The translations under genes and the position numbers were made by a program. From positions 1-39,487 of the forward strand of contig JAHFAF010000012.1 of the NCBI GenBank assembly GCA_023250715.1: DNA of 39,487 nucleotides, read 5' to 3'. The notes under the pieces were generated by a model. The model did no database searches and was not told the origin of the DNA. It saw only the letters and a list, made by a program, of their open reading frames with translations. The stretch comes from Pseudobdellovibrionaceae bacterium. GTDB taxonomy: Bacteria > Bdellovibrionota > FAC87 > UBA2466. Positions 1-22,589 of this stretch are shown here, one piece after another; position 1 is the first letter of the stretch, and each line of letters starts with the position of its first letter.

Positions 1-687
1 TACTTTGGGTGAAATGTTGCCGGGTTTTAGAGGGCGAATGATCTCCTCCACCCACTTCTGGCCTAACTCCGATTTCCCCCCCTCCATTTTTCTCATCACC
101 TCAGGAGGAGCGTTGGGAAGGATCCGAGTCCCCTCCTGTTTCTGCACGGGGCTTAAGCCCTCGGTGAGGCTCACCCAAAACTCGCCTACGGATCTTTTTT
201 GTTTTGCGGCGAGCGCTGAAAATGCTTTAGGGTCCGTTAATACCGTGTTCAAGAAAATCTGAGCAGCTTCTCGGCTCTCCTTGTGAATGGAAGGATCCTT
301 CGAAAAAAAATCGTAGAAAATAGTACGCTCAGCCAGAGTAGGGAAAACAAAATCTTTCAAATAGCTTTCCTTATCGTTTCCAAAAACCCCTTTGATTTTC
401 GCAAGCGAATCAGGAGCCGCAGTGTTCTTATCAATCCTCTGATCCTCCTTTTGTACAAGCTCTGGTGTAATCTCATGTCCATGATTCTTGAGAATCTGCG
501 CGTAGGTATAGGCGCGCACGAGCTGATCCAATCCCAAGTTTCGATTATCGTCGGGAAAGTAGATTTTAATGACAGCACTTCGGTAGGCAGCGTCCTTCTC
601 GCTAAGCGTGTAATCGCCGACTTTAGCAACGGGCGAATTTCGCGTGCAGGAAAAAAGAAATAGAAGAAGGGGCAAAAAACGGAGCAT
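1..687 (-). CDS. SurA/PrsA-like lipoprotein foldase (parvulin-type chaperone), runs off the left edge
   Basis: Not in the ORF track. Manual translation from ATG at 687 is open to base 1: MLRFLPLLLFLFSC (lipobox), PVAKVGDYTLSEKD (SurA_N/PrsA-like start), a helical region, then LKPGNISPKV (parvulin-like LKPGxxS motif). Confidence 0.7.
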   Translation of the reverse strand, partial: MLRFLPLLLFLFSCTRNSPVAKVGDYTLSEKDAAYRSAVIKIYFPDDNRNLGLDQLVRAYTYAQILKNHGHEITPELVQKEDQRIDKNTAAPDSLAKIKGVFGNDKESYLKDFVFPTLAERTIFYDFFSKDPSIHKESREAAQIFLNTVLTDPKAFSALAAKQKRSVGEFWVSLTEGLSPVQKQEGTRILPNAPPEVMRKMEGGKSELGQKWVEEIIRPLKPGNISPKV

Positions 688-702
688 TCAAAGAAGTATA
701 CT

Positions 703-2990
703 TTAAGGGGTGTAAGAGTAACCAGTGTTTAGATTTCCATTACAGTTACCGCCCCAGAGAATAACCTGCCGGCCCGTAAAGACCCCACTATGACCCCGGC
801 GGTACGCAGTGGCGAAAGCTCCGTCGTACCAGGTGCCATTCGCACCGACGTTCGGATCGAAGAGCTTTGTTTGGCCTTGGTAAAGACTTCCGTCCGTCGC
901 TCCATAAATAAACAACTTCGATCCGGTCCAGACACTGGGAATGGTATTGACCGAATCGTAGAGGAGAACTCTTCCTACGGGCACGTTCGTATTGCTCATG
1001 GCGACCCACGAGCCCTGGCCGCTATAACCGCCGGAATAAGGATCGTACATCGCACCATCCGTTAACTTGTAACCACCGCCCCAGATGAGCATGCGACGGC
1101 CTGTCCAGACCGCAACGTGATTGGTTCTCGCGCTGGGAGCTCCTGTAGTGGTGGTCGTCACCCAGGTATCGGTGTCCGGGCTATACTTTCCACCCGTATT
1201 GCTTCCATTGGAAAATCCGCCACCCCAGATAATCATGTCTCTACCGGTCCACACCACGCTGGCTCCTCCATAGCGGCTCGTCGGAACGTTCGTCGTACTC
1301 ATGGTTGTCCAGGTTCCCACCCCACCCACGCTAAAACCGTTGTAAGGATCAAGACGCGCACCCGATACCTTCGCCTGTGTACTGGAATTGCTGACGGGGT
1401 CAAATTCATAATTTCCAGATCCGCCCCAAACGATAAATTCTCTGCCGGTCCAGACGCTTAAATGTCCAAAACGAGCTGAGGGGGCGCCCGTATTTTCAAT
1501 TGCTATCCAGGTGGAGGCGCCTGTGCCGACGGGATCAAACATCGCACCATCTCCAAGATAGCCGGCAGTGGAGGATCCTCCCCAAATGATCATGTGGCGC
1601 CCTGTCCACGCGTAGGAAAATCCATTTCGGGCGGTGGGGGCATTGATATCCGAAATATCCACAGCCGACCAAGAGTCTGTGGCCGGATCGTAAATGCCTC
1701 CCGTACCCAAATAAGTGCTGACATCCGTGTTGCCACCCCAAATGATCATCTTACTTCCTGTCCACACGGCTGCGTGCCCGTATCTTGCTTCAGGAGCGCC
1801 AGTGCCGTTTGTCGACGATATTTGTACCCAAGTATTGGAAAGATTCGTAATCGGAGGCGTGTAACGTGCGCCCGTACCGACAGCTCCGCCATTCCACCCG
1901 CCCCACATCAGAAATTCTTTTCCAGTCCACGCACTGGCGTAAGCAGCGCGCCCCACGACTTCGGCGGCGGGATTTACCATGGTAGTCCAAGCCGTCGTGG
2001 AGGTGCCGGCGGCATTATCCAACGACGGATCGTAAAGACCGCCAGTATTGGTCGCAGCTCCACCCGTGCCGTTATAGCCACCCCAGATAACTAATTGTTT
2101 ACCGGTCCATTGCGCTTGCACGCCGGCCCTGACCGTGGGAGCTCCCGAGACTGTCATCGGACTCCAGATATCATTGACAGGATCATAACGGCGCCCGTCG
2201 TTAAAGTACGTGGCACCAGGGCATCCTCCGCCTGTGTATCCGCTGATTCCGCCCCAAACCAAGACCTCACGGCCGGTCCACACCATCGAATGCCCCTGGC
2301 GTTTCGTGGGCGCGCCGGCCATGGTAGTTGAACGCCAAGTTCCATTCGGGCCGTCATAGGGATCGAATCTTCCGCCCACGTCCGTTCCGGCGAAGCAGGA
2401 TCCTCCGTCGCCACCCCAGACCACCAATTCCTTTCCTGTCCAAACTCCGATATTGCCGGCCCAGTATCCGATAGAGTACCCGGTGGGAGCATTGGTCGTG
2501 CTCATCGCCGTCCAGGCGTTCACACTATTTCCATTCGCATCCTTAGAGGGATCGTACATCCCGCCGGGTGCAGCGCTGCCAGAAGACCCGCCCCACACAA
2601 GCATGTGCTTTCCCGTCCACACCGCTACATGCATCATCTTGGGAGAGGGCGCACCAGTCGTCGTCGTTTTTATCCAAGTCTGGCTCACTGGATCGAATCG
2701 ACCGCCATTATTCACAGCCGGATAGGAACTGCCTTCATGCGCTTGCCCGCCCCACACGATCATCTCCCTGCCCGTCCAAACTGCAGTGTGATCCTGTCTC
2801 GGGGTAGGAGTATTCGCAGTGACCGGAGTGGAAGTCCAGCTATCAGTTATCGGATCGTACATCGCACCAACCTGAACACTCATCGTTCCGCCCCAGACGA
2901 TCATCTGGCTTCCGGTCCAAACCACAGAGCTTTGAATTTTAGACACTCCAGAAAGCGGCGAGGAAGACATCGTCACCCAGGCCTGGCCGT
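703..2990 (-). repeat. 14 Kelch-like blades, probably two 7-bladed beta-propellers
   Basis: 14 (W/F)TGxx(M/L/V/F)xx(W/Y)G(G/A) motifs. Blades 7 and 14 are each followed by YTP (GARYTP, GYSYTP), which splits the region 7+7. Confidence 0.85.
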
Positions 2991-5900
2991 CATAAATGAA
3001 TTTCGGCGCGCTCGCGTGATTGGAGCTGACCTGATTATCCCCGTTTTTCACGATGACATCCGCTGGCCCGATGGCACCACTGGGAACCGTACAAATAATT
3101 TGCGTGCTGGTCGGAGTCCCCACTATCGGGCAGACAGTGCCGTTCACTGCCGGGCTGTCGCTTCCGCCGATAAGAACGGTGGGCGAGGAAAATTCAGCGC
3201 CCGTAAGTGTAATGGACGTTCCCGATTGTCCAAAGGCCGGTGTGAGGCTCGTAAGGGTCGGAGGGGGTGCGTAGGTAAAGGTGCCAATCGTCCTCAAATT
3301 CTGACTATTCGTCAAAACCAAACTGGCAGCACCCTTGACACCGGGGGGAGTGGTACACTGGACCTGATTGTAACTACTGCCAGTGATCTCGCAAATCTGT
3401 CCTCCGATCGTTACCGAGACTGCAGGAAAATTTGTTCCGGAAATCGTCAGAGGAGTTCCGCCCAACGTAGTCCCAGAGGGAGGACTGATGCTAGTAATCC
3501 CGGGCCGTTCGTGGAAATATCCCACGTAAGTCCTGGTGACGCTTTGTCCATCCCAGTTAGTCACAGTGACGCTCGCGTAATCGGCCGGAGGGTGCGGTGC
3601 GAGATTACATTGAATTTGAGTGGATGTCGCGGAGGTGACCGTGCAAGCAGAGGTGGTAATTGAACCATTCATGTTCTGGTAGGATACCGTCGGCAAGGCT
3701 GGGCTTGTCAGGAAATAATTGCCATTAATCGTTACCACCATGGGCGCTACACCATCGATCGTCCCGTCTGTCGAAAGCGCCCAAGGATCCACGGAACCCA
3801 CCGAAGGTGCATATTGATACTTGAACGTAGCGGAAAGTACCTTCGTTTGCCCATCCGAATTCTGCACTCTAGCGCCCACTAGCTCCTCGTACCAGAGACT
3901 ACTGGTGGTGCAAACGATCTGCGTATCATTGGAGAGGGCACCATTCACCGCACAAGGCTTATCTCCACTGGAGGTCACTAATGCCACTGTCGCTCCAGTG
4001 GAAAACTTAGACCCACTCAAGGTAATTTCCGTTCCGCCTTCAACCGCTCCCCCAGCCGGCGTGACACCTGAAATCACAGGAGCAAACCGGTAGGTAAAAG
4101 TAAGCGCCCCTGAAGTAGTCTGACCATCCGGATTCACCAAGGTGACAGCGACGGCTCCTTCCGTGTGCGCCGGCATGGATACGGTAAGTTTTCCGGAGTT
4201 GACGAAGGTAACAAAAGACGCTGCCAGCGCAGATCCATTCAACTTCACAGTGGGCTTAGTGATGAAATTCGATCCCAATACATCGATGCTGAACCCACCC
4301 GCTGGATCACCGGAAGTGACGCTGAGCGAACTCAATGCGGGGGCCAAATTGTAATCGTACGTTGTTGTTGCCGTTTTATTATCCGTGTTCTTCACTGTGA
4401 CGGTGACCGTGCCGCTTGCATGTGCGGGAATCTTAGCCGTGATTTGAGTGGACGTGATGGAAAGGTCGGAGGGCGCGACAAAGGCACCGCCGAAATCCAC
4501 CGTTAGCTTCGGCAAAAATCCCGTACCGTCAATCGTCATGCTAGCCCCCCCAGCGACAGGACCCGCGGTAGGCGTGCGTGAGATAATCGTCGGTGCTGGA
4601 GAGTTCACATAACTGTACTGGACATTATTCGAACTGGATTGAGTATCCCAGTTGGTGACGACTACTGGTGCACCGCCAACTGCGTGAGCACCCGTTTCGC
4701 AGGTAATCGATGTTCCGGAGCTCGACGTTACCGGACAATTCACCCCTCCGATCGAAACCGCTGGGCTAGGAAGGAAATCCGCTCCGCTAATCACTACACT
4801 CGTTCCACCCCCCGATGTGCCGGAGGTGGGGTTAGTTCCCGAGACCGTGGGAGCACGCTGATAGGTATAGCCATTCGACAATTGACCGGAGAGATCCAGT
4901 CCGAACGTCACTTTCACATGGGTGGCACCCGGGATAACTAATCCCGAAGGCGGCGGTGGCGTATCGGCGGTGATGGAATTTGCGCTCACCACTTGAACGT
5001 TTGTCGCCACGGCTTGCGCTCCCGTTCCCGGATTTACGAAGGTGACAGTCACGCCGGGGAAAAATCCTGATCCCGAAATCGTTACATGCGTGCCCCCCGC
5101 AATCGCCCCTCCACTAAGCGCAATTCCATCGACCGTGAAATTGCTTTTGTACGTGAAAAGTACGGCCCCATTCGTTGCCGTTTGCGGGCCAGGGTTTTTA
5201 ATTGCGACGGATGCGGGATTAACTCCCCCGGAAAAAGCCGGTGTCAAGCAGGTCATGCTCAAGGGCGGATTGGGAATGGGATTCGTGCAAGGCAATCCAT
5301 TGATTTCTGCGGTAGACGTATCCAGGATATTCGTTCCTGTAATTGTCACTAAACTGCCTCCCGCGCTATTTCCAATAGTCGGTGAAATGCTCGTGAGAGT
5401 CGGCGGAGGTGCGTAGAAATAAGAGGGTGACGTCGAATCCGATTGCCCTTCTTCGTTGATCACAACCACGTCCATTACGCCCGTGCCATTGGTCGGGCTC
5501 GCAGGAGTCCTGGCTGTAATCGTATTTTCATTCACAACGACAACACTCGTCGCCAAGGCTTCACTGTTTCCTAACTTAAACTTCACTTGAGCATTCGGAT
5601 AAAAACGCAGTCCCGTAATCGTTACAACGGCATTGCCGGCAACCGGGCCCGAGCCGGGATTTATTCCGGTGGCATCCGGAGCCATCCGATAAATAAATGC
5701 ACCGGTGCGTATGGTATTTTGATCGTCAAGATTGGTGATTTTCACGTCGGCAGGGAAAGGAGTCGTCCCGCTCAGTGCGTGGTTCGCTGCCGCGCAAGTG
5801 AGAATCGTGGCCGAGAAAGTGACAATCGGACAATCGACGTCCGCCACTTTTACCGAAACACCTGACAAGAAATTCGTACCAGTGATCGTCAGTATAGTCG

Positions 5901-8900
5901 GTACTACCGGGGCCGGGTTGCCCGCAACCGGCAATACAGTGGCGATCGAAGGAGCGGAGCTAATTTCGTATGTATACCCACCGCTCAACGTATCTGACTG
6001 GTTGTCGGAGTTTTGTATGAAAACGCCTTTCGCTCCGATGGCTGTATTTCGCGGAGTCACTGCAGTAATCGTGGTGTCATTGACTCGCACAACGCCAGTA
6101 ACCGCTTTTCCGTCAATCTGGACCGTGGGACTCGCCAAGAAGCCCGTGCCGGTAATCGTGATACTCGTACCACCGCCGGTGGAACCATGATTCGGGCTTA
6201 CCGATGTAACATGCGGCGGATTTCGATAGGTAAACTGCCCGGAGAGGCTCGCCGTCTGCCCATCTCCATTCGTCAAGACAATCGGGGGACTTGTGAGATC
6301 CGGCCCGGCCGGCGTTTTTCCCGTAACGGTCGTACCGTTTACCCTCACCACGGTTGTCGCACCGGCACCGCCGAATGCCACGGAAACCGTGCCGAAGAAA
6401 CCGGTGCCCGTCAGCGTGAAATCAGTCCCGCCCGCAGGCGGACCCGCTTGAATATTAATACCCGTGAGGGTAGGCGCCGCATTCAGATAGGTAAAGGCAC
6501 TGAGTTTAGTTCGAGCCTGTCCGAAAGCATCCGTCACGACGACATTCACAAGGCCTGCAGCATGGGCTCCGGTGAGACAGGTAATTTTCGTACTCGGCAC
6601 CACTACGTTCACCGGCCCGCAGGCCACACCAACCGTGTCGGTAGTGCTTTTCAAAATCACGGTATCCGACGATCGCAAACCGGAGCCATTGATGGTGAGG
6701 GCATCTCCTCCCCCGACGAGTCCAATTGCCGGAACAACCGTGTCCACCACCGGCGCATCCTTATAGACAAAGGGCAATGGATACTCGACGATTTGACCGT
6801 CTCCATTAGTGAGCTGAATTGTCGCGTTCCCTGCTGTGGTTGCCGCCGGAGTATGGAAACTCACATGGGTAGAATCGACGACGACGGGGTCCGTGGAGCT
6901 GATTCCACCCACCTTCACACTAGCCCCGGAGAGAAAACCTGTCCCCGTGAGCGTGACGAGAGTGCCTCCCGCCATCGGGCCTTCCAACACATCGGCGCCA
7001 CTCAAGGTGGGTGGCGGATTCGTGTAGGTGAAAGCATTTTGCTTCACGCGCGATTGGCCGTAGGAGTCGGTGACAACAACATTCACCTGGCCCGCGCCAT
7101 GCACGCTCGTCACGCAGGAAATTGTTGTATTCGTAGCAACCAAATTTACCGGCCCGCAGCTCGATCCACTTCCCAATTCCGCAGCGCCGATTAATTTCAC
7201 CGTATCGGAAGAGCGTAAACCAGTACCCACGATCGTAAGAACTGTTCCACCGAGCACGGTACCGGTGGCTGGCGCTACGGAATCCACCACCGGCGCGTCT
7301 TTATAAACAAAATTCTGAGGGTAGGTGACATTTTGTCCGTCTGAGTTCGTCAATTCAATGCTAGAGGAAGCCGCTGCCGTGGCAGGAGGAGTGTGGAACC
7401 TCACATGGGTGGAATCGACGACAACGGGGTCCGATGAGCTCACGCCGCCCACTTTCACGCTGGATCCGAGGAAGCCCGTTCCCGTAAGTGTTACCAGAGT
7501 GCCCCCGGCAAGAGGCCCTTCCAAAACGTCCGCGCCACTCAGGGTGGGGGCCGGGTTCACATATTGAAACGCGCTCAGCTTTACGCGCACCTGACCGTAG
7601 GAATCAGTCACCACTACGTTTACGACGCCGGCGGCATGACTACTCGTCACGCAGGAGATTGTTGTATTGGTAACAACCAAATTTACCGGGCCGCAGTTCG
7701 ATCCGCTTCCAATTTCCGCAGCACCGATTAATTTCACCGTATCGGTGGAGCGCAGTCCGGAGCCTACGATTGTAAGTACGCTGCCGCCACCTGAAAGACC
7801 CGTTGCAGGGGTAACCGAGTCAATAATCGGCGCATCCTTATAGATGAAGGGCTGCGGGTAAGTAACCACTTGAGCATCTGCATTGGTCAATTCAATGGTG
7901 GCGGAAACCGCTTGCGCAACACCCGGAGTGTGGAATCTCACATGGGTGGAATCCACAACAGTCGTGTCAGGAGCTGCGATCGCCCCAACTTTTACGGATG
8001 CACCCGTCACAAAATTTGCACCAGTCAGGGTGACTAAACTTCCGCCCGCAAGAGGCCCTTCCAAAATATCCGCCCCACTCAGAGTAGGGGGTGGGCTCGT
8101 GTAGCGAAAAGCTTGAGGTTTTGTCCTGGACTGATTGAAAGAATCGGTGACGACAAGATCAACCGCGGTCGCACTCGCTGTTCCCGTCGGGGCGACACAG
8201 GAAATCTTGGTATTCGTCTCTAAGACGGCAACCGAGGTACAGGGTCTACCGTCCACCTTCACGGTACTTAACTCATTCAAACCTACACCGGTGATGGTGA
8301 GAAGCGTATTCACATTTGCAAGGCCAGTCGCCGGAGTTACCGTGTCGAGGGTCGGTGCATCTTTATAAGTGAACGCTGAAGTGAGGGAGCGCTTTTGGCC
8401 GTCGCCGTTCGTCAACTCCACATCCACCCCACCCGCCACTTCCTGCGACGGAGTAATAATTGTGACTTTTGTTGAGTCGACGAAAGTTACATTCGAGACC
8501 GACTTATTGCCGAATTTGACGGAGACCGGGCTTCGAAATCCACCGCCATTTAAGTCAACAGAAGTTCCGCCAACAAGTGCTCCTTCGGAGACACTCAAAC
8601 TGGTAAGACTGGGCGGCGGGAAAACATAGGTGAATAACCCTGTTTTACTGGAGCTTTGCCCGTCCGGATTAACGACGGTAATCGTGTAAGAGCCTTCGTC
8701 CGTCTGGGAGGGTGAGGTACAACGCAGCTGCGATGCCGAATCGAATAAAACCGGCGTACAGGATTTGGAGCCCAGCTGAACCGTCGCCCCGTCCTTAAAA
8801 TCATTTCCCGTAATCGTGAGGGACTGCCCACCGCTCGTCGAACCAGAAGAAGGAGAAACTGATCCGACGTTCGGAGGGAGAATGAATGTGAATGCATTAG

Positions 8901-11421
8901 AAAGCGCGTGCTGTTGACCGTCGGAGTTAATCACGGCGACTTCCACGGCTCCGGCAATGTGGGACTTTGTTGCAAAAGTGAGGCTGGTATCGCTAGCGAG
9001 AACTACATTGCTAGCATCTTCTCCATCCAACGTAATGCGTACACCCGAAGTGAATCCCGTGCCGACGGCAGTTACGGCCGTTCCGCCATTAGAGGTTCCA
9101 TGATCTGGGGAAATGCTCGTCAAATGCGGGGCCGGAAAGAGGATATAAGTGTACGGTGAAGTGCCTGACTGCCCATCCGTATTCAACACGCGAACGTCTA
9201 CGCTTCCCGCCGCCTCATGCCGCGGAACTTGGCAAACCAATTGGGTAGAACTTACTCGGGTGGTGTCCGTACAGGGCAATCCCCCGACGAATATCTGAAT
9301 TCCCGATAGAAAGTTTGTTCCCGAAACGGTGATATTATTTCCACCGCCCGTAGAGCCAGAGGCCGGGACTACTGCGGAAATGGACGGGGCTGGAACGGTG
9401 ACAAATCGATAAGATCCCAACAAGGAGCCGACGTTCCCGTCCGTGTTCGTTACGGCAACATCTACGGTGCCCGTTGCGTGCTCCGGTGTCTTGCAAGAAA
9501 TTTGCGTATCACTATCGACCACCACGTTGGAAGCACTGTCATTTCCGAATTTGACCGTCGCCCCAAAAACAAACCCGGTTCCCGTAATCGTGACGATCGT
9601 TCCGCCTCCGATAGTTCCAGAAACCGGCGAAAGGGACGTAACGGAAGGAGCAGGAAGACTAACGTAATTGAATCCATCGGCTTTCGCGCCCGATCGAAGA
9701 TCCGTATTTGTTACTTTGACCTCCGCGATCCCAGCCGCGTGAGGCGAAGTAAGACAGCTCATCTGGGAAGAGGAAATCAAAATAGAGTGAGAACAGGGTT
9801 GCCCGCCAACCTGAATGTTCGCTCCATTCAAGAATCCGGATCCGTTCACGGTAATCGGAGTGCTGCCACCTGTCGTGCCTTGCGCAGGGATCACTTGGGT
9901 GACTGTCGGCGGATCGGAGTCGGAGTAGGTGAAGGCATTACTCAGCTCGGAAAATTGCCCGTCGGTATTGGTAACCCTCGCCGCAACAGCTCCCGCGGCA
10001 TGGTTCCGCGTAAGGCAGGTCAGCTTAATGGAAGATTCGACGACAACATCGTCGCAGATACTATTATCGAGTTTCGCAATAGCACCCGGAAGGAAGTTAA
10101 GACCATTAATAACGATCTGCGTTCTACCACCTGTCGTGCCTTGAGCAGGAACGACGGATAAGACAGCCGGCGCAGGAGGAGTGCCGTAGGTGAACCCACC
10201 GCTTAGAGTTCCGGATTGGAAATCACTGTTTGTGAAAACAACGGAAACCGGCCCTTCGGCGTGCGCTGGAGTAACACAACTTGCTTCCGTCGAAGAACGG
10301 ACGACTGCGGAGCCGCAGGGAGTGCCATCTAGAAAAATTGTTGCCGAGGGATAAAAATTCGATCCCCGCAGGGTAATACTGGTTCCGCCGCCCTTGGTTC
10401 CCGTATTCGGAACCACCTGACTGACCTGAGGAGGCGAAACGACGACATAGGTGAAGCCCGCACCCAATGTAGCTTTCTGTCCGTCGTCACTATTTGTGAC
10501 CTCGACGGCCACAGCACCAGCGGCATGCGTGGAAGAGTTGCAAAGAATTGTCGTGCTAGTGAGACTCGTAATCACGCAAGGGGATCCGCCAAAGGAAACG
10601 GAGGCTCCCGGCTTGAAGTTTTTACCGACGAGAGTCATCGGAGTTCCGCCGCCGGCAAGACCCGATGTTGGACTAACGCTGGAAAGAGTCGGCCCGGCTT
10701 GGTATCGATAACCTCCCACTAACAATGAAGTTTGATTATCGTCGCTAATGTATTCGACATCCACCGTAAGAGCTTCGCTCACGGCCGGAGTGGTACATCG
10801 TACTCGGGTTCCCGAATCCACGCTCACGGAAAGACAATCTTGGTTTCCGATTCGTACGGCACCCCCAGAAGAAAATCCTGATCCCGTAAGAGTGACTTCC
10901 GTTCCGCCCGAGATCCGGCCGGCTACGGGGCTCACGGAGGCCAACAGGGGAGAGGCACGCCCCGTAACGCTGACCTGAACCGACTGACTAGATAGCCCGT
11001 CGTTAAAGCCCAGAATCATTTGCGAAGAAAAAGACCCGCCGATTTCGGGGGAAAACTCGACGATAACGGTGCAGTGTTCATTTCCTTTCAAAGTCGATTC
11101 GCACGTACCGCCCTGGCCCGGAAAGGACCCGCCTACGAAATACCAGGGCGAGGCGACGCTGCCCTCGAGGTGCGTGGCCACCTTGTCCCCGTCGTTAGTG
11201 ATGACAAAAACTATGTTGGAAGATTGACCGACGTGAAGCGTGCCGAAGGGGAAAGAATGGGAATCCGTGGATTGAATCGAATTGCTACTGATTTTCAGAA
11301 GAGCAAGTTGAGTCTCGATTCCGGGACTGAACACACCGGCGTTCTTGAATCGCTGGCAGGAAGAAAAAGCCAGGACACAAATCAGCCCAAGCGCAAAAAT
11401 GTTACGAGTCGATGGCACCAC
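703..11421 (-). CDS. Giant surface lipoprotein/adhesin: ASH/choice-of-anchor-D Ig domain + 30 IPT/TIG domains + 14 Kelch repeats (3572 aa)
   Basis: GTG start with AAGGGA upstream and lipobox LAFSSC. FPFGTL...VITNDG...GGTC...CTVIVEFSP marks the Ig domain. I counted 30 units of P.(V/L)..V.P..G...GGT.VT(I/L).G.(G/N)F...F.Y and 14 C-terminal WTG..(M/L)..WGG units. Confidence 0.92.
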   Translation of the reverse strand: MVPSTRNIFALGLICVLAFSSCQRFKNAGVFSPGIETQLALLKISSNSIQSTDSHSFPFGTLHVGQSSNIVFVITNDGDKVATHLEGSVASPWYFVGGSFPGQGGTCESTLKGNEHCTVIVEFSPEIGGSFSSQMILGFNDGLSSQSVQVSVTGRASPLLASVSPVAGRISGGTEVTLTGSGFSSGGAVRIGNQDCLSVSVDSGTRVRCTTPAVSEALTVDVEYISDDNQTSLLVGGYRYQAGPTLSSVSPTSGLAGGGTPMTLVGKNFKPGASVSFGGSPCVITSLTSTTILCNSSTHAAGAVAVEVTNSDDGQKATLGAGFTYVVVSPPQVSQVVPNTGTKGGGTSITLRGSNFYPSATIFLDGTPCGSAVVRSSTEASCVTPAHAEGPVSVVFTNSDFQSGTLSGGFTYGTPPAPAVLSVVPAQGTTGGRTQIVINGLNFLPGAIAKLDNSICDDVVVESSIKLTCLTRNHAAGAVAARVTNTDGQFSELSNAFTYSDSDPPTVTQVIPAQGTTGGSTPITVNGSGFLNGANIQVGGQPCSHSILISSSQMSCLTSPHAAGIAEVKVTNTDLRSGAKADGFNYVSLPAPSVTSLSPVSGTIGGGTIVTITGTGFVFGATVKFGNDSASNVVVDSDTQISCKTPEHATGTVDVAVTNTDGNVGSLLGSYRFVTVPAPSISAVVPASGSTGGGNNITVSGTNFLSGIQIFVGGLPCTDTTRVSSTQLVCQVPRHEAAGSVDVRVLNTDGQSGTSPYTYILFPAPHLTSISPDHGTSNGGTAVTAVGTGFTSGVRITLDGEDASNVVLASDTSLTFATKSHIAGAVEVAVINSDGQQHALSNAFTFILPPNVGSVSPSSGSTSGGQSLTITGNDFKDGATVQLGSKSCTPVLFDSASQLRCTSPSQTDEGSYTITVVNPDGQSSSKTGLFTYVFPPPSLTSLSVSEGALVGGTSVDLNGGGFRSPVSVKFGNKSVSNVTFVDSTKVTIITPSQEVAGGVDVELTNGDGQKRSLTSAFTYKDAPTLDTVTPATGLANVNTLLTITGVGLNELSTVKVDGRPCTSVAVLETNTKISCVAPTGTASATAVDLVVTDSFNQSRTKPQAFRYTSPPPTLSGADILEGPLAGGSLVTLTGANFVTGASVKVGAIAAPDTTVVDSTHVRFHTPGVAQAVSATIELTNADAQVVTYPQPFIYKDAPIIDSVTPATGLSGGGSVLTIVGSGLRSTDTVKLIGAAEIGSGSNCGPVNLVVTNTTISCVTSSHAAGVVNVVVTDSYGQVRVKLSAFQYVNPAPTLSGADVLEGPLAGGTLVTLTGTGFLGSSVKVGGVSSSDPVVVDSTHVRFHTPPATAAASSSIELTNSDGQNVTYPQNFVYKDAPVVDSVAPATGTVLGGTVLTIVGTGLRSSDTVKLIGAAELGSGSSCGPVNLVATNTTISCVTSVHGAGQVNVVVTDSYGQSRVKQNAFTYTNPPPTLSGADVLEGPMAGGTLVTLTGTGFLSGASVKVGGISSTDPVVVDSTHVSFHTPAATTAGNATIQLTNGDGQIVEYPLPFVYKDAPVVDTVVPAIGLVGGGDALTINGSGLRSSDTVILKSTTDTVGVACGPVNVVVPSTKITCLTGAHAAGLVNVVVTDAFGQARTKLSAFTYLNAAPTLTGINIQAGPPAGGTDFTLTGTGFFGTVSVAFGGAGATTVVRVNGTTVTGKTPAGPDLTSPPIVLTNGDGQTASLSGQFTYRNPPHVTSVSPNHGSTGGGTSITITGTGFLASPTVQIDGKAVTGVVRVNDTTITAVTPRNTAIGAKGVFIQNSDNQSDTLSGGYTYEISSAPSIATVLPVAGNPAPVVPTILTITGTNFLSGVSVKVADVDCPIVTFSATILTCAAANHALSGTTPFPADVKITNLDDQNTIRTGAFIYRMAPDATGINPGSGPVAGNAVVTITGLRFYPNAQVKFKLGNSEALATSVVVVNENTITARTPASPTNGTGVMDVVVINEEGQSDSTSPSYFYAPPPTLTSISPTIGNSAGGSLVTITGTNILDTSTAEINGLPCTNPIPNPPLSMTCLTPAFSGGVNPASVAIKNPGPQTATNGAVLFTYKSNFTVDGIALSGGAIAGGTHVTISGSGFFPGVTVTFVNPGTGAQAVATNVQVVSANSITADTPPPPSGLVIPGATHVKVTFGLDLSGQLSNGYTYQRAPTVSGTNPTSGTSGGGTSVVISGADFLPSPAVSIGGVNCPVTSSSGTSITCETGAHAVGGAPVVVTNWDTQSSSNNVQYSYVNSPAPTIISRTPTAGPVAGGASMTIDGTGFLPKLTVDFGGAFVAPSDLSITSTQITAKIPAHASGTVTVTVKNTDNKTATTTYDYNLAPALSSLSVTSGDPAGGFSIDVLGSNFITKPTVKLNGSALAASFVTFVNSGKLTVSMPAHTEGAVAVTLVNPDGQTTSGALTFTYRFAPVISGVTPAGGAVEGGTEITLSGSKFSTGATVALVTSSGDKPCAVNGALSNDTQIVCTTSSLWYEELVGARVQNSDGQTKVLSATFKYQYAPSVGSVDPWALSTDGTIDGVAPMVVTINGNYFLTSPALPTVSYQNMNGSITTSACTVTSATSTQIQCNLAPHPPADYASVTVTNWDGQSVTRTYVGYFHERPGITSISPPSGTTLGGTPLTISGTNFPAVSVTIGGQICEITGSSYNQVQCTTPPGVKGAASLVLTNSQNLRTIGTFTYAPPPTLTSLTPAFGQSGTSITLTGAEFSSPTVLIGGSDSPAVNGTVCPIVGTPTSTQIICTVPSGAIGPADVIVKNGDNQVSSNHASAPKFIYDGQAWVTMSSSPLSGVSKIQSSVVWTGSQMIVWGGTMSVQVGAMYDPITDSWTSTPVTANTPTPRQDHTAVWTGREMIVWGGQAHEGSSYPAVNNGGRFDPVSQTWIKTTTTGAPSPKMMHVAVWTGKHMLVWGGSSGSAAPGGMYDPSKDANGNSVNAWTAMSTTNAPTGYSIGYWAGNIGVWTGKELVVWGGDGGSCFAGTDVGGRFDPYDGPNGTWRSTTMAGAPTKRQGHSMVWTGREVLVWGGISGYTGGGCPGATYFNDGRRYDPVNDIWSPMTVSGAPTVRAGVQAQWTGKQLVIWGGYNGTGGAATNTGGLYDPSLDNAAGTSTTAWTTMVNPAAEVVGRAAYASAWTGKEFLMWGGWNGGAVGTGARYTPPITNLSNTWVQISSTNGTGAPEARYGHAAVWTGSKMIIWGGNTDVSTYLGTGGIYDPATDSWSAVDISDINAPTARNGFSYAWTGRHMIIWGGSSTAGYLGDGAMFDPVGTGASTWIAIENTGAPSARFGHLSVWTGREFIVWGGSGNYEFDPVSNSSTQAKVSGARLDPYNGFSVGGVGTWTTMSTTNVPTSRYGGASVVWTGRDMIIWGGGFSNGSNTGGKYSPDTDTWVTTTTTGAPSARTNHVAVWTGRRMLIWGGGYKLTDGAMYDPYSGGYSGQGSWVAMSNTNVPVGRVLLYDSVNTIPSVWTGSKLFIYGATDGSLYQGQTKLFDPNVGANGTWYDGAFATAYRRGHSGVFTGRQVILWGGNCNGNLNTGYSYTP
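6485..8100 (-). repeat. Three tandem ~540-bp copies of a two-IPT-domain unit (more diverged fourth copy to ~8620)
   Basis: TCACATGGGT recurs at 6861, 7401 and 7938, and CAAATTTACCGG at 7141 and 7678. The protein unit PTLSGAD(I/V)LEGP...YKDAP(I/V)(I/V)D repeats. Confidence 0.9.
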
Positions 11422-11516
11422 GCCCGTTAAGTCCCTTTTGAAATCGAGTCAATTTTGGAATGAATTCGGATGTAGCAGAAATGGGGAGCAGAACGATAAA
11501 CGCGCAACGAGGAACT

Positions 11517-11529
11517 TGCTACAGTAGCA
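11517..11529. promoter_or_regulatory. Palindromic operator TGCTAC-A-GTAGCA over the predicted start site of the giant gene
   Basis: Perfect 6-1-6 inverted repeat 2 nt downstream of the TATAAT box. Confidence 0.5.
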
Positions 11530-11531
11530 TT

Positions 11532-11560
11532 ATTATACGGGAATTGCCTTACTGCGTCAA
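11532..11560 (-). promoter_or_regulatory. sigma70 promoter of the giant lipoprotein gene
   Basis: Minus strand TTGACG-17 nt-TATAAT. A second weaker one, TTGACC-18-TACACT, lies at 11580..11609. Confidence 0.8.
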
Positions 11561-11617
11561 TGAAGCGATGACATTTAGTAGTGTATTTTCAGATGGTTAC
11601 AGTGGTCAATTATGAAG

Positions 11618-12628
11618 CTAAGGGGAAGAGAAGGTATAGAGTAGGCCTAGCCCTCCCCCTGCCCAAAATCTAGCTTGGTTCAGAATCGTGTTGCGCGTGA
11701 GTTGATAACTGTAGTGCCCGCCGATTTTGATCCAGACTTCGTCGGAGAGAGTGGCATAAGCGCTGATATCCACCCCATGTGCGTAACCGGAAAAAGAACT
11801 CACCTCGCTGGAAAGGGTGGAGAGAAAATAACTTCCGTATCCCATCACTCCTATCGTCAGCGCTTTGGAAAGAGGCTCTTCATAACTCAACCTCAAACCA
11901 ACAGAAGTTGCGGGCACATCGAAAATAGCCAAGTTGTCAGTGCTCACCTCGCGAACAAAGGGAAGTTCTTCGAGATCGAGCTTCAGTCCCAATCGGAAAC
12001 GGTGGCTTGAAAACGGATACCACCCGAGATCCAACTCACCGCCCACCAGATTGAGCTGATTCACAGGGAGCGCTTGCCCTTCCGGTGCGATCATTTCGTA
12101 ATGTTGGAGCCCGACACCCAAACGAAGATCAACTTTAGCGGAAAGAGGAACGAATCCCGCGATATCGACGCCATATATCGTCGGAGAATCCGATGCGGCC
12201 GCCCCTCCCCCCGTGGCGTTGTCTTGGAAGGAGGTATCACTCACCGCAAAATACGGATCGATGAGAATGCGCGTTTGCCGGGAGAACGAAGTTGTTAAAC
12301 TACTCTTGCCATTTACAGAAGCAATTTGCCGAACGATTAATTTCTCGCGCACGCGAGGATCCTTTACCTCGCCCTTGAGCTCTTTCAATACAGACTGGTC
12401 CGAAATTTTTAGGACCGTTCTCCGCACTTTCTCCAAAATTTGATCCTGCGCATTCGCGGGATAAAGCGGGAGCATCTTGTCCAAAAGAAGAAGGAGCTTG
12501 GGATAATCCTCGTTCTTCATCGCTGCTTTCGCATCTCGAATGAGCAGCGCTTTCTGGGAATCACTGGGATCGGCAAACGCCGGCGTCGCCAGAAAAAACA
12601 GGGTCAGAATGTGCGCCCAAGCTCCCAT
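11618..12628 (-). CDS. Outer-membrane beta-barrel protein with N-terminal TPR-like helical domain
   Basis: Signal peptide MGAWAHILTLFFLATPAFA; helical segment AKAAMKNEDYPKLLLLLDKMLPLYP; then about 10 amphipathic strands ending GLGLLYTF near the C-terminus. Confidence 0.72.
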   Translation of the reverse strand: MGAWAHILTLFFLATPAFADPSDSQKALLIRDAKAAMKNEDYPKLLLLLDKMLPLYPANAQDQILEKVRRTVLKISDQSVLKELKGEVKDPRVREKLIVRQIASVNGKSSLTTSFSRQTRILIDPYFAVSDTSFQDNATGGGAAASDSPTIYGVDIAGFVPLSAKVDLRLGVGLQHYEMIAPEGQALPVNQLNLVGGELDLGWYPFSSHRFRLGLKLDLEELPFVREVSTDNLAIFDVPATSVGLRLSYEEPLSKALTIGVMGYGSYFLSTLSSEVSSFSGYAHGVDISAYATLSDEVWIKIGGHYSYQLTRNTILNQARFWAGGGLGLLYTFSSP

Positions 12629-12653
12629 ACAATACGCGGACCCGCGCTTCTTC

Positions 12654-12680
12654 GTATCGGCAAAAAACGTAACTTTCTTA
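12654..12680 (-). promoter_or_regulatory. sigma28 (FliA)-type promoter of the barrel gene
   Basis: Minus strand TAAG-15 nt-GCCGATAC against the consensus TAAA-N15-GCCGATAA, 25 nt upstream of the ATG. Confidence 0.7.
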
Positions 12681-14138: not shown

Positions 14139-14531
14139 ATGCCCGACGACAAAAAAGATGACAATTATTGGAAGGGTAAACTTTCCCCGGAAGAATTCCA
14201 GATCACACGAAAAAAGGGGACTGAGCGAGCCTTCACGGGGGAGTACAACGCTTGTAAAGATCCCGGAACCTACCTCTGCAAGTGTTGCGGTGAGCCTCTA
14301 TTTTCCTCCGATGCCAAATTCGATTCTGGGACCGGATGGCCGAGCTTCTTCAAGCCGTTGGAGAAACAGGTCGAGTCCGAAGATGATTCCAGTTTTTTCA
14401 TGAAACGCACCGAAGTGCATTGCCGCAAATGCGGCGCACACCTGGGCCACGTTTTCGACGATGGACCGGAGCCCACCGGAAAACGCTACTGTATCAATTC
14501 CCTTTCTTTGAAGCTCGAGAAGAAGACGTAG
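14139..14531 (+). CDS. msrB: Peptide-methionine (R)-S-oxide reductase, cytoplasmic
   Basis: GTERAFTG, CxxC pairs, [24 protein letters not shown]. Confidence 0.97.
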
Positions 14532-15147
14532 AAGGATCAAGAACCGATCTTTGAGTATCGACCATCTTTACATAGATCCGCGCCATATCGACCGCATCAC
14601 TGAGTGCCGTATGAAGCGCCCCTTCGCGGATTCCATAATGCTTGATGATTTTCGACGTCGAGGCGGTTCCCTGCGGCAGGACTCCGCAATCGATAAGAAA
14701 CCTTGCCGCTCCCGTCACGTCGATCGTGTGGTGATGGAATCTTTGATTCATAAATTCCCAGCCAAACGTTCGCGTCAATAATGGAATATCGAGTGCACTC
14801 AAACTTTTTCCAAGAAGAATGGGGCGTTCTCCACCGAAAAATTTCTTAATCTTCGGTGAATCGAGATAGTCCGCCACTTCCTGGCGCAGTTTGGATACTG
14901 CAATACCATCGGAATTAGCCCGGCGAATAAGCCCTTCATTGTGCTCGATCACCCAGGGGTTTAACCTGGGCTTCAACTCCTCGAAGGCGGGGCACTGCAC
15001 GAGCCACTCCACCCCGGATTCCTCGAGCACAAGGCCTTCTTGCACATCGATCGGAACAAATGCCAACTGAATCAGGAGGCAATCCTCGGTTAACCCAGTG
15101 GCTTCGGTATCAAGACTCAAGTAGCGATGAGTATTCGGATCGGCCAT
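14494..15147 (-). CDS. DEDDh 3'-5' exonuclease (DnaQ/oligoribonuclease-like)
   Basis: [10 protein letters not shown] (ExoI), ALDIPLL (ExoII), HTALSD (ExoIII). ATG 15147 chosen; TTG 15156 is possible. Confidence 0.85.
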
Positions 15148-15251
15148 TTGAGCCAATATTCACCTAATGCTCGTCAACCGGCAAGTTCTCTGGGATTCCG
15201 AGTCCATTTGGGGTGACGACGCGTTACCGGCCGCAGACTCCTCAAGAATGG

Positions 15252-16763
15252 TTACTTAAATCCCTCGAGAAAAAGTAAGAGCCCAGTCTCCTGAAACAAC
15301 TTTTCTTGGCGCTCGGAGTTTAAGCTTTTCAAGAATGGCCAATATTCCTTCAAGACCGCTTTCCTTTCCTTAGTTACTCTTTTCGGATCTCCCATTTCGA
15401 GTCGTGCGTCGCCAAGAGCATCCAACCTCTTCCTCATTTCCTCCAAAATCGGGACATCTTTTTCGTAGCTCATTTCGATCAAAGCGTCGGAGACGTTCCT
15501 CAGATTTCTGCGCGAGAGCCGAAACCTCTTTGGAAGTACTTTACCGAATGGCCGCACCCGTTGGAAAGATCCATTAGACTCCGGATCAAGACATTGAATT
15601 TCATCAAGTTTAGACGCGTAAGCGTTACAGATTTTTTCCGCCCACGCAAATAGGGGGCCGCCGCCTGAATAACTAGCGTAAGCGACCTTCTCGAGCCATT
15701 TACCGTCCTTGTCTTTAAAAATATAACAGTCCCAGTTATAGAGCTGCGTTGGAAAGCATACAGCGCTGCTTGTGGCTGCGGGTGTTCCGCTAGCTTCAAT
15801 CCATGCAAAAGGGTAATCCCACGCATCCTTCTTGGGGATGTATTGGTAGTCTTTATCATAAAGAGTTATCGTCCGCGCTCCGGCCGCGGTATCATCTACG
15901 ACGCGCTTTTCCACCGGTTTAGCCGCGTAAGCAGCCAAAAAATAGGATTGGAACCCTTTGAGCATGAATTCTCTTTTGATACGACAGTAGATTCCTTTTT
16001 TTCGTACCGACTGAACGTATGGTTTTTCTCGGCTCACTTTCACATACCTTTCGGTCACTGGAATGCTCGCCATAAAGCAATACCCCCCAAGCGCCTCGAA
16101 ATAAGTGGGCTCACCCAGAATATCTAAAGACCCGAAAAGAAGACCCTCTTCAATTTTCGAGTAATCACTCCCAATGATGGGTAACTTCCCCCACCAACCC
16201 AGGTCTTTTTCTTTCAAAGGAGATTGGTCGTCACCAAAGGGCGCTGGGAACCATTGGATTTCATATTCTCCCACACGATTTGTTTCCCGGAATTCAGATA
16301 TAGTGTTCCCCGTGGCTTTCAGATAATGCTTGTTATCGAAACGCCCTTGCAAAAGACTTTCTGGCAAAAGGGAGGGGGGATTTTCAGCATATTTAAGAGC
16401 ACGACAAAGGAACTTGTCTCCCAAAAGTCCGCAAACTTGATTATTTCCCAATGACAGAGAGTTCGCCTTGGCGAGTTCAGGATAGTACGAGACTCTTTTA
16501 TCCTTCCATGACCAGCAATAGAGCATGTTGTCATCTTGAGCACATTGCCCTTTTTCGGAGGAAACGATCTGAGAGATAGGTCCGATGTCGTAAAGAAAGT
16601 CTAAGGACTCCGTTTCTCCCGTTGGCCCAAGACAAAAAAGCTCCTTATCCTGGACTGCACAAAGATGCGTGAGTCCACCCGTGACGGAGGCGACGTGACC
16701 TGGCGCCGGTAAGCACATTAGAAAAAAGGCCAGGTACATCACTTTTTCATTCCAACTATTCAT
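15252..16763 (-). CDS. Secreted Cys-rich protein with RCC1/BLIP-II-like repeats and a helical C-terminus
   Basis: GGGAGG RBS before ATG 16763 (MNSWNEK); signal-like segment; GGLTHLCAVQDKELFCLG and SLGNNQVCGLLGDKFLC repeats. Confidence 0.6.
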   Translation of the reverse strand: MNSWNEKVMYLAFFLMCLPAPGHVASVTGGLTHLCAVQDKELFCLGPTGETESLDFLYDIGPISQIVSSEKGQCAQDDNMLYCWSWKDKRVSYYPELAKANSLSLGNNQVCGLLGDKFLCRALKYAENPPSLLPESLLQGRFDNKHYLKATGNTISEFRETNRVGEYEIQWFPAPFGDDQSPLKEKDLGWWGKLPIIGSDYSKIEEGLLFGSLDILGEPTYFEALGGYCFMASIPVTERYVKVSREKPYVQSVRKKGIYCRIKREFMLKGFQSYFLAAYAAKPVEKRVVDDTAAGARTITLYDKDYQYIPKKDAWDYPFAWIEASGTPAATSSAVCFPTQLYNWDCYIFKDKDGKWLEKVAYASYSGGGPLFAWAEKICNAYASKLDEIQCLDPESNGSFQRVRPFGKVLPKRFRLSRRNLRNVSDALIEMSYEKDVPILEEMRKRLDALGDARLEMGDPKRVTKERKAVLKEYWPFLKSLNSERQEKLFQETGLLLFLEGFK

Positions 16764-16776
16764 TTTCGTTCCTCCC

Positions 16777-18318
16777 TTAACTCGATTCCAATGATAAATA
16801 AAATCCCACAATCAACCCCATCAGGCCCGGCGTTTTAGTCTTCGGATAAGCTGCCATCCGCTCGAAATATGTCTTATGACGCTTTAGCATGTTACCAACA
16901 GCGCTAATCTCCATCGGATGAGGATCGGCTGCGAACTCACCAAGCGCAGCAACGATAGTATCAAGGGTGGCCTTATCATCTTTGCGCGGTAGAAATTTCC
17001 TATGGGAGTTCAATGCGGTGATCAATAACAGCACAGACATCTCCGCCCTCTTTTCATCCGGTGAAAAATCTTGGAGTGATTTAATTCCATTAGCCAAATT
17101 CATAATGGTAAGTTGGCGCAAAAAATTCGTGGGAATATCGTTTCGAAAGTTTGGGATTTCTACATTTTCTAAAACTGGCCTAAGTAAATTAGCAAAAAAA
17201 AGTTCAGTCCCTGGCTGGCCCGCGAGAACCTCTTTCGCCTTGGCCAACACGGCTGCGTCTCGGTCATATAGCAATTCATCAATCCTTCCCAAGGTGTCTG
17301 CCAGAAAAAGGTCTGAGAAATCAAAATAGCTCATCAGTGTGATCGATCCCCTCACGCTAAACGGCTGGTTTGTCTCTCCAGCTTTCGTACATCGAATAGT
17401 TCCAGTATTTGTCACCAAACAGATCTCCTGTCCCACCATAACAGGCTTCGAGATGTCCGTTGGGGGTAGCGCAATAGTGGTGAGTGCGTTTTGACAAAGA
17501 GTTTCATTGGGATAACGACGAAAGCATTTTGAATCCGGGGCCCTTGCTGTCACCCCACATTGGATCGTCCGTTCATCCAAAGAACGAATACAAAAAGCTC
17601 CGTGAGTGTCCGAAAAGATCGGAGAAATATCCGCTGAGAGATTTCCTCTAAAAAAGGTGGAGAATTTCGGATGTTGAGGAAGGCCCTCCAGCCCCTCCTC
17701 CAGCCCAGTGAGATCGGAGCAGGAAAAATGGCCTGTAAAGACGGGCTTCTGTGGTTGAACGCAGAGCGAATTTCCAACAATTAAGGGTTTTACGTCTGGT
17801 GCCAGACCACTGACCGCGTAAGACGCCTTTTCTTTGCCGTTGATTCTCCCCGTACAAAGCAAGCGAGTTGCGGCTGCATCTTCAAAACGGCAGGTAAATG
17901 ACGCTCCCACCAAAGAATCGCTGGTTGCTAACCCCGTTATTGGTGCAAAAGTGTGTTCGACGCAGGAGACTCTCCCTGATTTTTTTCCGCAAGCGTGGTT
18001 TTCTGTGACGTGGATATTACTAATCTCTGTAAACTCCGGGTGGGAATCTAATATCTCGGGGGCTCCCCATTTCCAACAATGCAACGCAAGCGAATCGCGA
18101 ACACATTGAACCGAATCAGTTGAGAAGGTGGCTAGGGGAAGAGTGAACTGTGGAAGCCTTTCCTTCGCTAACGGAACTCCCTTTTCCCAGCATTTGAACC
18201 CATCGGCATCGATCGCACATACTCGATTGGTACCCCCCGTAAAGTGAAGCCACTTAGCGACGGCGCCATAAGCTCCGCTCGGCTGCAATATTAGAAACAC
18301 GGAAAAGAGCAACTTCAC
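16777..18318 (-). CDS. Secreted Cys-rich protein with RCC1/BLIP-II-like repeats and a helical C-terminus (paralogue of the neighbour)
   Basis: GTG start overlapping the upstream stop (GTGA); signal peptide; GGTNRVCAIDADGFKCW and VTENHACGKKSGRVSC repeats. Confidence 0.62.
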   Translation of the reverse strand: MKLLFSVFLILQPSGAYGAVAKWLHFTGGTNRVCAIDADGFKCWEKGVPLAKERLPQFTLPLATFSTDSVQCVRDSLALHCWKWGAPEILDSHPEFTEISNIHVTENHACGKKSGRVSCVEHTFAPITGLATSDSLVGASFTCRFEDAAATRLLCTGRINGKEKASYAVSGLAPDVKPLIVGNSLCVQPQKPVFTGHFSCSDLTGLEEGLEGLPQHPKFSTFFRGNLSADISPIFSDTHGAFCIRSLDERTIQCGVTARAPDSKCFRRYPNETLCQNALTTIALPPTDISKPVMVGQEICLVTNTGTIRCTKAGETNQPFSVRGSITLMSYFDFSDLFLADTLGRIDELLYDRDAAVLAKAKEVLAGQPGTELFFANLLRPVLENVEIPNFRNDIPTNFLRQLTIMNLANGIKSLQDFSPDEKRAEMSVLLLITALNSHRKFLPRKDDKATLDTIVAALGEFAADPHPMEISAVGNMLKRHKTYFERMAAYPKTKTPGLMGLIVGFYLSLESS

Positions 18319-22472: not shown

Positions 22473-22492
22473 TACCAGATGCTTATGAAAAC

Positions 22493-22533
22493 TGACACTT
22501 TGTGTCAATTCATTACTTCTCACTTCTTCTCAC
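22493..22533 (-). promoter_or_regulatory. Promoter region with TTGACA, palindrome TGACAC-TTT-GTGTCA and direct repeat GTGAGAAG x2
   Basis: Palindrome at 22493..22507; -35 TTGACA at 22508..22503; CTTCTCAC at 22516 and 22526. The -10 box is poor. Confidence 0.5.
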
Positions 22534-22563
22534 AACCGGTTCTTTTCTATCAAGAGCCCTGGA

Positions 22564-22589
22564 GGGGGAAAGGAAATGACCTCTCCCCC
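22564..22589 (-). terminator. GC-rich hairpin after the 23387 gene (terminator or stabilising stem)
   Basis: Minus strand GGGGGAGAGG-TCATTT-CCTTTCCCCC with no clear U tract. Confidence 0.5.

Follow-up and report, generated by a model that had tools for sequence, protein, structure and literature searches.

Gene content of the locus

We analysed the first 39,487 bases of contig C387 from a Pseudobdellovibrionaceae bacterium (assembly of 4.5 Mb in 542 contigs), a stretch that we refer to as the window, and focused on three minus-strand open reading frames (ORFs) that occupy its positions 1-12628 and encode a small outer-membrane barrel protein (P0001), a giant probable lipoprotein (P0002) and a SurA-like lipoprotein chaperone (P0003). 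An earlier note on this DNA, made from its letters alone, had read these ORFs as three co-oriented genes of a dedicated system for displaying a lipoprotein on the cell surface, with a foldase-like gene 15 bp downstream of the giant one. Both the shared orientation and this spacing were recovered, with P0002 and P0003 15 bp apart; P0001 and P0002 are separated by 196 bp. Identical DNA was found in groundwater metagenome runs from a single study. The features on which our argument draws are given here in the order of transcription.

11618..12628, minus strand: P0001, ORF of 336 amino acids (aa) with signal peptide, helical head and 10-strand barrel; secreted outer-membrane protein
12314..12562, minus strand: five-helix periplasmic head of P0001, aa 23-105 (DSSP of the model, no Pfam TPR match)
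11633..12271, minus strand: 10-stranded beta-barrel of P0001, aa 120-332 (AlphaFold2 model, fold matches)
11532..11560, minus strand: sigma-70-like promoter TTGACG-17-TATAAT upstream of P0002 (11/12 match)
703..11421, minus strand: P0002, ORF of 3572 aa; probable lipoprotein with Ig-like head, 30 IPT/TIG domains and Kelch propellers
11320..11367, minus strand: lipobox AFSS/C22 and post-Cys motif C-x9-FSPGIET of P0002 (read from translation)
3322..10944, minus strand: IPT/TIG array of P0002, about aa 160-2700, with paired Cys in most repeats (Pfam TIG, 30 stretches)
706..3084, minus strand: Kelch beta-propeller region of P0002, about aa 2780-3572, about 14 blades (PF24681, E 6.1e-59; PF24981, E 1.2e-32)
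1..687, minus strand: P0003, ORF covering the first 229 of 292 aa, cut by the contig start; SurA-like lipoprotein chaperone

The 15-nt spacer at 688-702, from the P0002 stop to the P0003 start (AGTATACTTCTTTGA), holds no recognisable Shine-Dalgarno sequence. Promoter-like sites across the region numbered 7, versus 8.0 in shuffles, and so show no excess. Within an RNA-seq library from the same study as the groundwater runs, four short contigs fell on P0002 (at least 99% identity) and none on P0001 or P0003; such contigs record presence only and are silent on expression. One of the four, covering 11369-11525, ends 7 nt downstream of the -10 hexamer of the P0002 promoter. This gives a weak hint of in-situ transcription from that promoter, since the end of a contig is no proof of a start and DNA may have been carried over.

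Structure of the barrel protein

P0001 begins with an AxA-type signal peptide, read from sequence, and matched nothing in Pfam (hmmscan, E up to 0.1) or NCBIfam. Only three close relatives (P0004-P0006) were present among 1.84 billion representatives, at 41% identity, at 34% identity and as one fragment. Scans of genome and metagenome contigs did not find their genomic context, a word-indexed protein search returning the query only; P0005 belongs to a 113-kb contig. The AlphaFold2 model built on this four-sequence alignment (mean pLDDT, the model's per-residue confidence, 77.6) comprises a disordered signal peptide, five helices at aa 23-105 and about ten strands at aa 120-332. An all-against-all structure search placed OpcA as its best match (Z 20.7, root-mean-square deviation (rmsd) 2.3, 197 residues aligned), with a Legionella Dot/Icm-associated porin (Z 18.5), pOmpT (Z 17.7) and a designed 10-strand barrel (Z 14.5) also matching, versus Z of about 10 for 12-strand autotransporter barrels, and Foldseek agreed with this 10-strand ranking. 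The roughly ten amphipathic strands that the earlier note had counted by reading the sequence are thus borne out by both the model and its best matches. The likeness to OpcA and the omptins is one of fold, as P0001 has no PF07239 or PF01278 match and differs from them by its extra periplasmic head and its partner gene. A PDB sequence search with alignment A1 gave no match.

The head had been described as TPR-like, which is apt only in a loose sense. It consists of five helices without a Pfam match to tetratricopeptide repeats (TPRs), and it aligns with residues 148-224 of a TPR-headed 461-aa homologue (G014:C29; hhalign probability 95, E 3.6e-8, 272 columns for the whole alignment). In longer homologues the segment aligned with it is helical and comes after the true TPRs. 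The head of the P0001 profile also weakly matches lipoproteins of about 660-690 aa (E 7e-5 to 9e-4) that lie directly downstream of a dnaJ-like gene in four genomes (L026-L029, in G003, G024, G020 and G005).

Structure of the giant lipoprotein and of the chaperone

P0002, the longest of 51 ORFs of at least 1000 aa in the assembly, opens with a lipobox-like AFSS/C22, read from sequence and with an atypical Phe at -3, and continues with a HYDIN/VesB-type Ig domain, 30 IPT/TIG stretches and Kelch propellers in which 14 W[TSA]G motifs recur. The IPT/TIG array also matches the NCBIfam repeat CoaZ_rpt_PGGG ('choice-of-anchor Z'; 23 stretches, E 1.5e-155), and the paired cysteines of most repeats fit an oxidising compartment. 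Pfam and NCBIfam scans returned no autotransporter, RTX or other export domain, in keeping with what the sequence had first suggested, a 3572-aa lipoprotein that carries neither an autotransporter barrel nor an RTX tail. With Pro at 6.3%, P0002 is not notably Pro-rich, which removes the Pro-rich substrate for which the neighbouring chaperone had been proposed.

The full-length form of P0003 is P0007 (292 aa, 100% identical over 229 residues), found in the protein collection. P0003 carries a lipobox (LFS/C14, read from sequence) whose Cys is missing in some homologues, and it has no Pfam match of its own; two homologues pass the Pfam SurA_N_3 cut-off (32.7 and 28.5 bits versus 27.2), and the homologues P0008-P0011 bear PF13624 in precomputed annotation. 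The P0007 model (pLDDT 90.1, 20-sequence alignment) returned SurA, PrsA, PpiD, PEB4 or the leptospiral LIC12922 in all of its top 25 structural rows. It aligned with SurA chains at Z 7.6-9.5 over 117-152 residues, the best being SurA in a BAM (beta-barrel assembly machinery) complex (9hga_F; Z 9.5, rmsd 4.0, 140 aligned), and it possesses the N- and C-terminal chaperone module that this class shares. These observations support the assignment of P0003 as a SurA-like lipoprotein chaperone, as the earlier note had proposed. Its suggestion of prolyl-isomerase activity found no support: the inserted middle domain of the model (about 165-262) was not aligned to parvulin domains, model residues 148-261 match PAS/Cache-like chains (Z about 4), Rotamase_2 reached only a weak E of 0.03 in one of 12 proteins scanned, and the PrsA parvulin domain gave a weak E of 0.045 by profile. 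P0003 thus differs from the SurA class in being lipid-anchored, in having no recognisable parvulin domain and, as described below, in being genomically tied to Kelch proteins.

The barrel family and its large neighbours across the phylum

A first profile, built from P0001 and its three relatives, retrieved two distant homologues, both in the window's taxonomic family, and adding these two (profile A4) extended the barrel family to 66 of 401 genomes sampled across the phylum, a few of the matching rows spanning the head only. The barrels differ in what precedes them, with TPR heads in the window's taxonomic family, LysM heads in many other families, a FecR-like head once, or no head. Two genomes contribute three homologues from the window's own family that have true TPRs. 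Pfam recognised LysM in 4 of 23 aligned barrel relatives and further relatives appear LysM-like in the ORF listings. A tree of the barrels had weak deep nodes and gave no order of events.

We evaluated gene neighbourhoods at 43 barrel loci (the best 40 of 77 listed places, taken regardless of context, plus the window, G014:C29 and G012:C62), with ORFs called by a crude caller of our own and with the other ORFs of at least 150 aa at the same loci as controls, from which the barrels' own neighbours were excluded and whose counts still run too high because the giants also adjoin a gene on their other side. An immediate neighbour of at least 1000 aa accompanied 18 of 43 barrel genes versus 25 of 404 control ORFs; for neighbours of at least 640 aa the counts were 28 versus 58, and for neighbours of at least 640 aa with a lipobox, 21 versus 20. 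The corresponding odds ratios were 11-18, with Fisher values of 1e-9 to 1e-13 that are overstated because the relatives are not independent and the gene calls are crude ORFs. Most commonly the large partner lies directly downstream of the barrel on the same strand, with stop and start overlapping by 1-4 bases at seven loci, and divergent and convergent layouts also occur. At G014:C29 the genes for the 461-aa homologue and for a 2811-aa FG-GAP lipoprotein meet at their 3' ends, separated by 4 bp, and the lipoprotein bears the post-Cys motif described in the next section. The window genome itself holds a second barrel-family fragment two genes from an IPT lipoprotein (C272), on a 3.8-kb contig that is too little to count.

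The partners resemble adhesins and carry arrays of Big_1 and Invasin_D3, Invasin_D3 with a C-type lectin (Lectin_C), Cadherin_5/Big_9, fn3, Laminin_G_3, FG-GAP or RCC1/beta-helix domains; Big_1, Invasin_D3 or lectin domains occur in many of those that accompany LysM-headed barrels. At three barrel loci the large neighbour is a phage-fibre-like protein with a Peptidase_S74 domain, a fibre class that has been implicated in Bdellovibrio prey recognition (as summarised in PMC10769870). At two loci (L045, G253:C83, 9374-17803; L047, G209:C28, 9050-14154) the gene after a barrel with a LysM or helical head encodes a single-TIG lipoprotein of 184 aa with the motif, and a Peptidase_S74 fibre protein of 2183 aa or 1010 aa, respectively, is encoded divergently; the small lipoprotein may be an adaptor between barrel and fibre.

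Partner content also bears on whether the giant need reach the surface at all. It could instead stay beneath the outer membrane, with the barrel and its wall-binding head merely tethering envelope layers, and the LysM, TPR and OmpA-type heads, which bind the wall or periplasmic partners, would suit such a scaffold. We consider this very improbable, as 30 Ig-like domains and two propellers would far exceed the width of the periplasm, the partner domains are typical of surface adhesins and fibres, and the P0002 repeat falls in the NCBIfam 'choice-of-anchor' class, which we take to be a mark of surface proteins.

P0001 also stands apart from Slam, the barrel of type XI secretion systems (T11SS), to which the earlier note had likened it. 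Were P0001 a Slam-related protein with TPRs and a barrel, it would translocate the adjacent lipoprotein. The general layout agrees (a periplasmic helical or TPR head plus a barrel beside a lipoprotein), a lipobox-bearing cargo does lie 196 bp downstream, and TPR_Slam matched weakly (E 0.0073) in one of 23 barrel-family members. PF04575 (SlipAM/DUF560), however, is absent from P0001 (E up to 0.1) and from those 23 members (E up to 1), and a genome search with it found none, a result that is little informative because the control also gave no match anywhere. The barrel has 10 strands versus the 14 predicted for Slam (in the account of PMC7857515), many of its relatives are LysM-headed instead of TPR-headed, and Ig-like repeats and propellers make up its cargo of 3572 aa. 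Abstracts on T11SS place these systems in Proteobacteria, outside which the window's phylum lies. Kinship with Slam is thus a claim that we do not retain, and a Slam-like route strikes us as having a very small chance of being correct; the two may possibly perform the same display job, judging by the likeness in layout to the systems treated in PMC7857515.

A motif behind the lipidated cysteine

When the N-termini of the partners were aligned on the lipobox Cys, a recurrent C-(N-P-L/F-G)...[FYW]-x-P-G emerged. P0002 reads C-QRFKNAGV-FSPGIET at this position, and partners in other families of the phylum read FQPGLET, FNPGGET and FSPGYET. The pattern C-x(8,16)-[FYW]-x-P-G occurs in 16 of the 43 neighbours of barrel genes, P0002 among them, versus 14 of 404 control genes of the same loci, and in only two of 229 lipoprotein-like ORFs (crudely predicted) of the window genome, one of which is P0002. 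The other is a 141-aa lipoprotein-like ORF just downstream of a 1112-aa ORF (G000, C144:3046-6901). The aromatic residue lies 9-17 residues past the Cys (median 14, about 46 angstroms if extended). The barrel tracks a short motif just past the lipidated Cys, and this shared rare motif places P0002 among the barrel-partnered lipoproteins independently of gene position. At L078 (G127:C30, 15024-18088) we noted by eye a second pair, a barrel-like ORF of 300 aa and a 721-aa lipoprotein that begins C-N-P-M, the former running into the start of the latter.

The chaperone and its link to Kelch proteins

P0003 has relatives in 15 of the 33 further genomes from the window's taxonomic family and in 11 of the 367 that were sampled from the rest of the phylum. 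A Kelch protein adjoins the SurA-like gene in 9 of 33 places (31 loci) versus 7 of 280 controls, a W[TS]G proxy accounting for eight of the nine and Pfam for the ninth, and the nine are spread over four families of the phylum. In three places the arrangement of the window recurs, the Kelch gene being upstream on the same strand, and elsewhere it is downstream or convergent. Some of these Kelch neighbours have neither IPT domains nor a lipobox (G393, G243), so that the chaperone would track the propeller and not the lipoprotein or the barrel.

At one locus that resembles the window's trio but has other genes at its ends (L037, G024:C109, 1487-13382), an OmpA-domain protein of 348 aa is followed after 45 bp by a 2641-aa IPT/Kelch lipoprotein and then by the SurA-like gene, with an OMP_b-brl gene 1.3 kb beyond the latter. 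We considered both flanking genes as P0001 relatives and rejected them, each being unrelated by hhalign; the Atlas identifies the upstream one as an OmpA-family protein only.

The earlier note had proposed synteny as the check on its idea, and homologues of both the barrel and the foldase do co-occur with large proteins, in the proportions given above (21/43 versus 20/404 for barrels and lipobox-bearing neighbours, 9/33 versus 7/280 for chaperones and Kelch proteins). These proportions also bear on the simplest account of the locus, namely that its three genes are coincidental neighbours: P0001 would be an independent small outer-membrane protein (an adhesin, a protease-like protein or a wall tether, like OpcA, OmpT or OmpA), P0002 would use type II secretion or an unknown flippase, and P0003 would be a general chaperone. 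The 196-bp gap, the separate promoter-like site, the widespread and generic character of proteins that join LysM to a barrel, and the lack of such neighbours for 24 of the 33 SurA-like genes and for 15 of the 43 barrel genes are all compatible with this account. We nevertheless regard it as improbable, given an 11- to 18-fold enrichment over genes of the same loci, a rare motif common to the partners, and a linkage that survives changes in orientation and spans families of the phylum. The comparative gene order thus supports an adjacency of P0001, P0002 and P0003 that is not coincidental.

Interpretation

The apparent 'system' is two independent two-gene linkages, barrel with lipoprotein and chaperone with Kelch protein, which meet here on one cargo. 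We put at roughly 0.55 the probability that P0001 and P0002 are a dedicated pair mounting a giant adhesin-like protein on the cell surface, with P0003 as a periplasmic, membrane-tethered SurA-type holdase for the Kelch part. Gene anatomy, folds, the two conserved linkages and the shared motif are observations. From these we infer the binding, topology, surface exposure and order of events of the following scheme. P0002 would be exported by Sec, lipidated at Cys22 and transported to the outer membrane, and the 10-17 residues that follow the Cys and end in [FYW]-x-P-G would either dock inside the P0001 barrel of 10 strands or be threaded through it while BAM assembles that barrel. The lipid would remain in the inner leaflet, with the Ig-like/IPT stalk and the Kelch head outside, the stalk of 30 Ig-like domains probably being too long for the periplasm. 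P0001 would use its helical head, in whose place relatives have LysM or TPR, to hold the barrel to the periplasm or cell wall, and P0003 would keep the propeller region unfolded until export.

Several observations weigh against this interpretation. The close family of P0001 comprises three other members, none of them placed in a genomic context; its barrel model was built on four sequences; and its link to the wider barrel family consists of profile matches of 14-26% identity. The neighbour statistics are overstated for the reasons given with them, and at 15 of the 43 barrel loci no neighbour reaches 640 aa, one of these 15 being truncated by the end of its contig. A check by eye, not a systematic one, turned up no second locus with barrel, giant and SurA-like gene together, and in the window a gap of 196 bp separates P0001 from P0002, which has a strong promoter-like site of its own. 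A 10-strand lumen, judging by OmpT and OpcA, is probably narrow enough to disfavour passage of a folded chain and makes even threading uncertain.

A serious rival, though on balance an unlikely one, gives the barrel a catalytic role: it would be a sorting or translocation factor that reads the post-Cys motif as a surface-export signal, functionally like Slam or the Bacteroidota lipoprotein export signal, and that with BAM or TAM (the translocation and assembly module) moves many copies, or several lipoproteins, before releasing them. The same synteny and motif data speak for this reading. At G107:C33 two motif-bearing lipoproteins follow one barrel; Slam has been described as a translocon or as a chaperone working with another assembly complex (in the passages of PMC7857515 that deal with it); and two-partner inverse autotransporters have been proposed to secrete several substrates repeatedly (per the main text of PMC4943183). 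In favour of the stable pair, ten strands would leave a lumen narrower than that of known translocators with 12 to 16 strands, and there is mostly one barrel per partner, often with overlapping stop and start, which suggests that the two are made in equal amounts.

Comparison with known display systems

Among published ideas the closest analogy to the proposed pair appears to be the two-partner inverse autotransporters, variants of type Ve secretion, and a threaded lipoprotein-barrel complex would likewise be closer than Slam. In the former, as set out in the main text of PMC4943183, ZirT is paired with ZirS/ZirU, SinH with SinI, and Yfr4 with Rat-like proteins, so that an outer-membrane barrel gene is followed by a separate Ig-fold protein that depends on the barrel. 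Intimin and invasin, as portrayed in the relevant part of PMC6714894, string together LysM, barrel, Big_1/Invasin_D3 and lectin, the same order of parts that we see across P0001 relatives and their partners, whereas in our pairs the chain ends with the barrel and a lipobox opens the passenger. By analogy, severing an inverse autotransporter behind its final strand, at the periplasmic turn, would give the proposed topology. The likeness has limits: IAT_beta (PF11924) was found in neither P0001, the 23 family members nor the window genome (the E. coli control was positive), the P0001 family has a barrel of 10 strands versus 12, the head of P0001 is helical and not LysM, and P0002 carries IPT/TIG and Kelch in place of Big_1. 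The partners here are, moreover, lipoproteins with a conserved post-Cys motif, and the word 'lipoprotein' is absent from the main text of PMC4943183.

Complexes of RcsF with OmpA/C/F offer a second comparison, in that an N-terminal linker passes a small barrel, lipid and bulk lie on opposite sides, and assembly is coupled to BAM (according to the portion of PMC7857515 devoted to them). The median spacing of 14 residues between Cys and motif would span a barrel in the same manner. RcsF is small and uses abundant general porins, whereas here a dedicated, co-encoded barrel would serve a giant cargo, the threading itself being conjectural.

The module is likely a variant of barrel-assisted surface display that recurs across the phylum and that we have not found described. 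The literature searched, which took in the main texts of the Bdellovibrio MAT-fibre paper and of PMC4943183, gave no description of a small LysM- or TPR-headed barrel paired with a lipoprotein adhesin, and the words 'LysM', 'barrel' and 'lipoprotein' are all absent from the main text of the former. More tentatively, and with the odds against it, the module could represent a new display branch across the phylum, a 'split inverse autotransporter' in which a lipid anchor takes the place of a covalent bond from the small, wall-tethered barrel to the Ig-repeat passenger, in which Cys-x(about 14)-[FYW]-x-P-G both threads the barrel and serves as the recognition signal, and which in this genome would carry a 3572-residue IPT/Kelch protein with its own Kelch-specific SurA-like holdase. 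Of the display system first proposed for this locus, the conserved linkages of barrel and chaperone stand, and its Slam-type and prolyl-isomerase components found no support.

How lipoproteins, above all giant adhesins, are placed on the surface is largely unknown in Gram-negative bacteria outside Proteobacteria and Bacteroidota. The two-gene module described here, an uncharacterised 10-strand barrel with a wall- or periplasm-binding head plus a motif-marked lipoprotein, recurs across the phylum. If confirmed, it would add a further route of surface display, supply a sequence signal by which to predict surface lipoproteins in these bacteria, and provide a conceptual link between inverse autotransporters, RcsF-type threaded complexes and Slam-type systems, while the Kelch-linked SurA-like lipoprotein would be a rare cargo-dedicated periplasmic holdase.

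Other features of the window

Beyond the locus, seven co-oriented minus-strand ORFs at 14494-23450 (220, 519, 513, 523, 636, 275 and 283 aa) have nearly all no Pfam match, apart from one weak match to Trypsin_2, and their GC content is 0.46-0.48 versus 0.52-0.56; this stretch is possibly an island or an uncharacterised secreted-protein operon. Further along, a minus-strand gene at 27142-28377 encodes a 411-aa protein that joins SprT-like, DUF2786 and DUF7168 domains.

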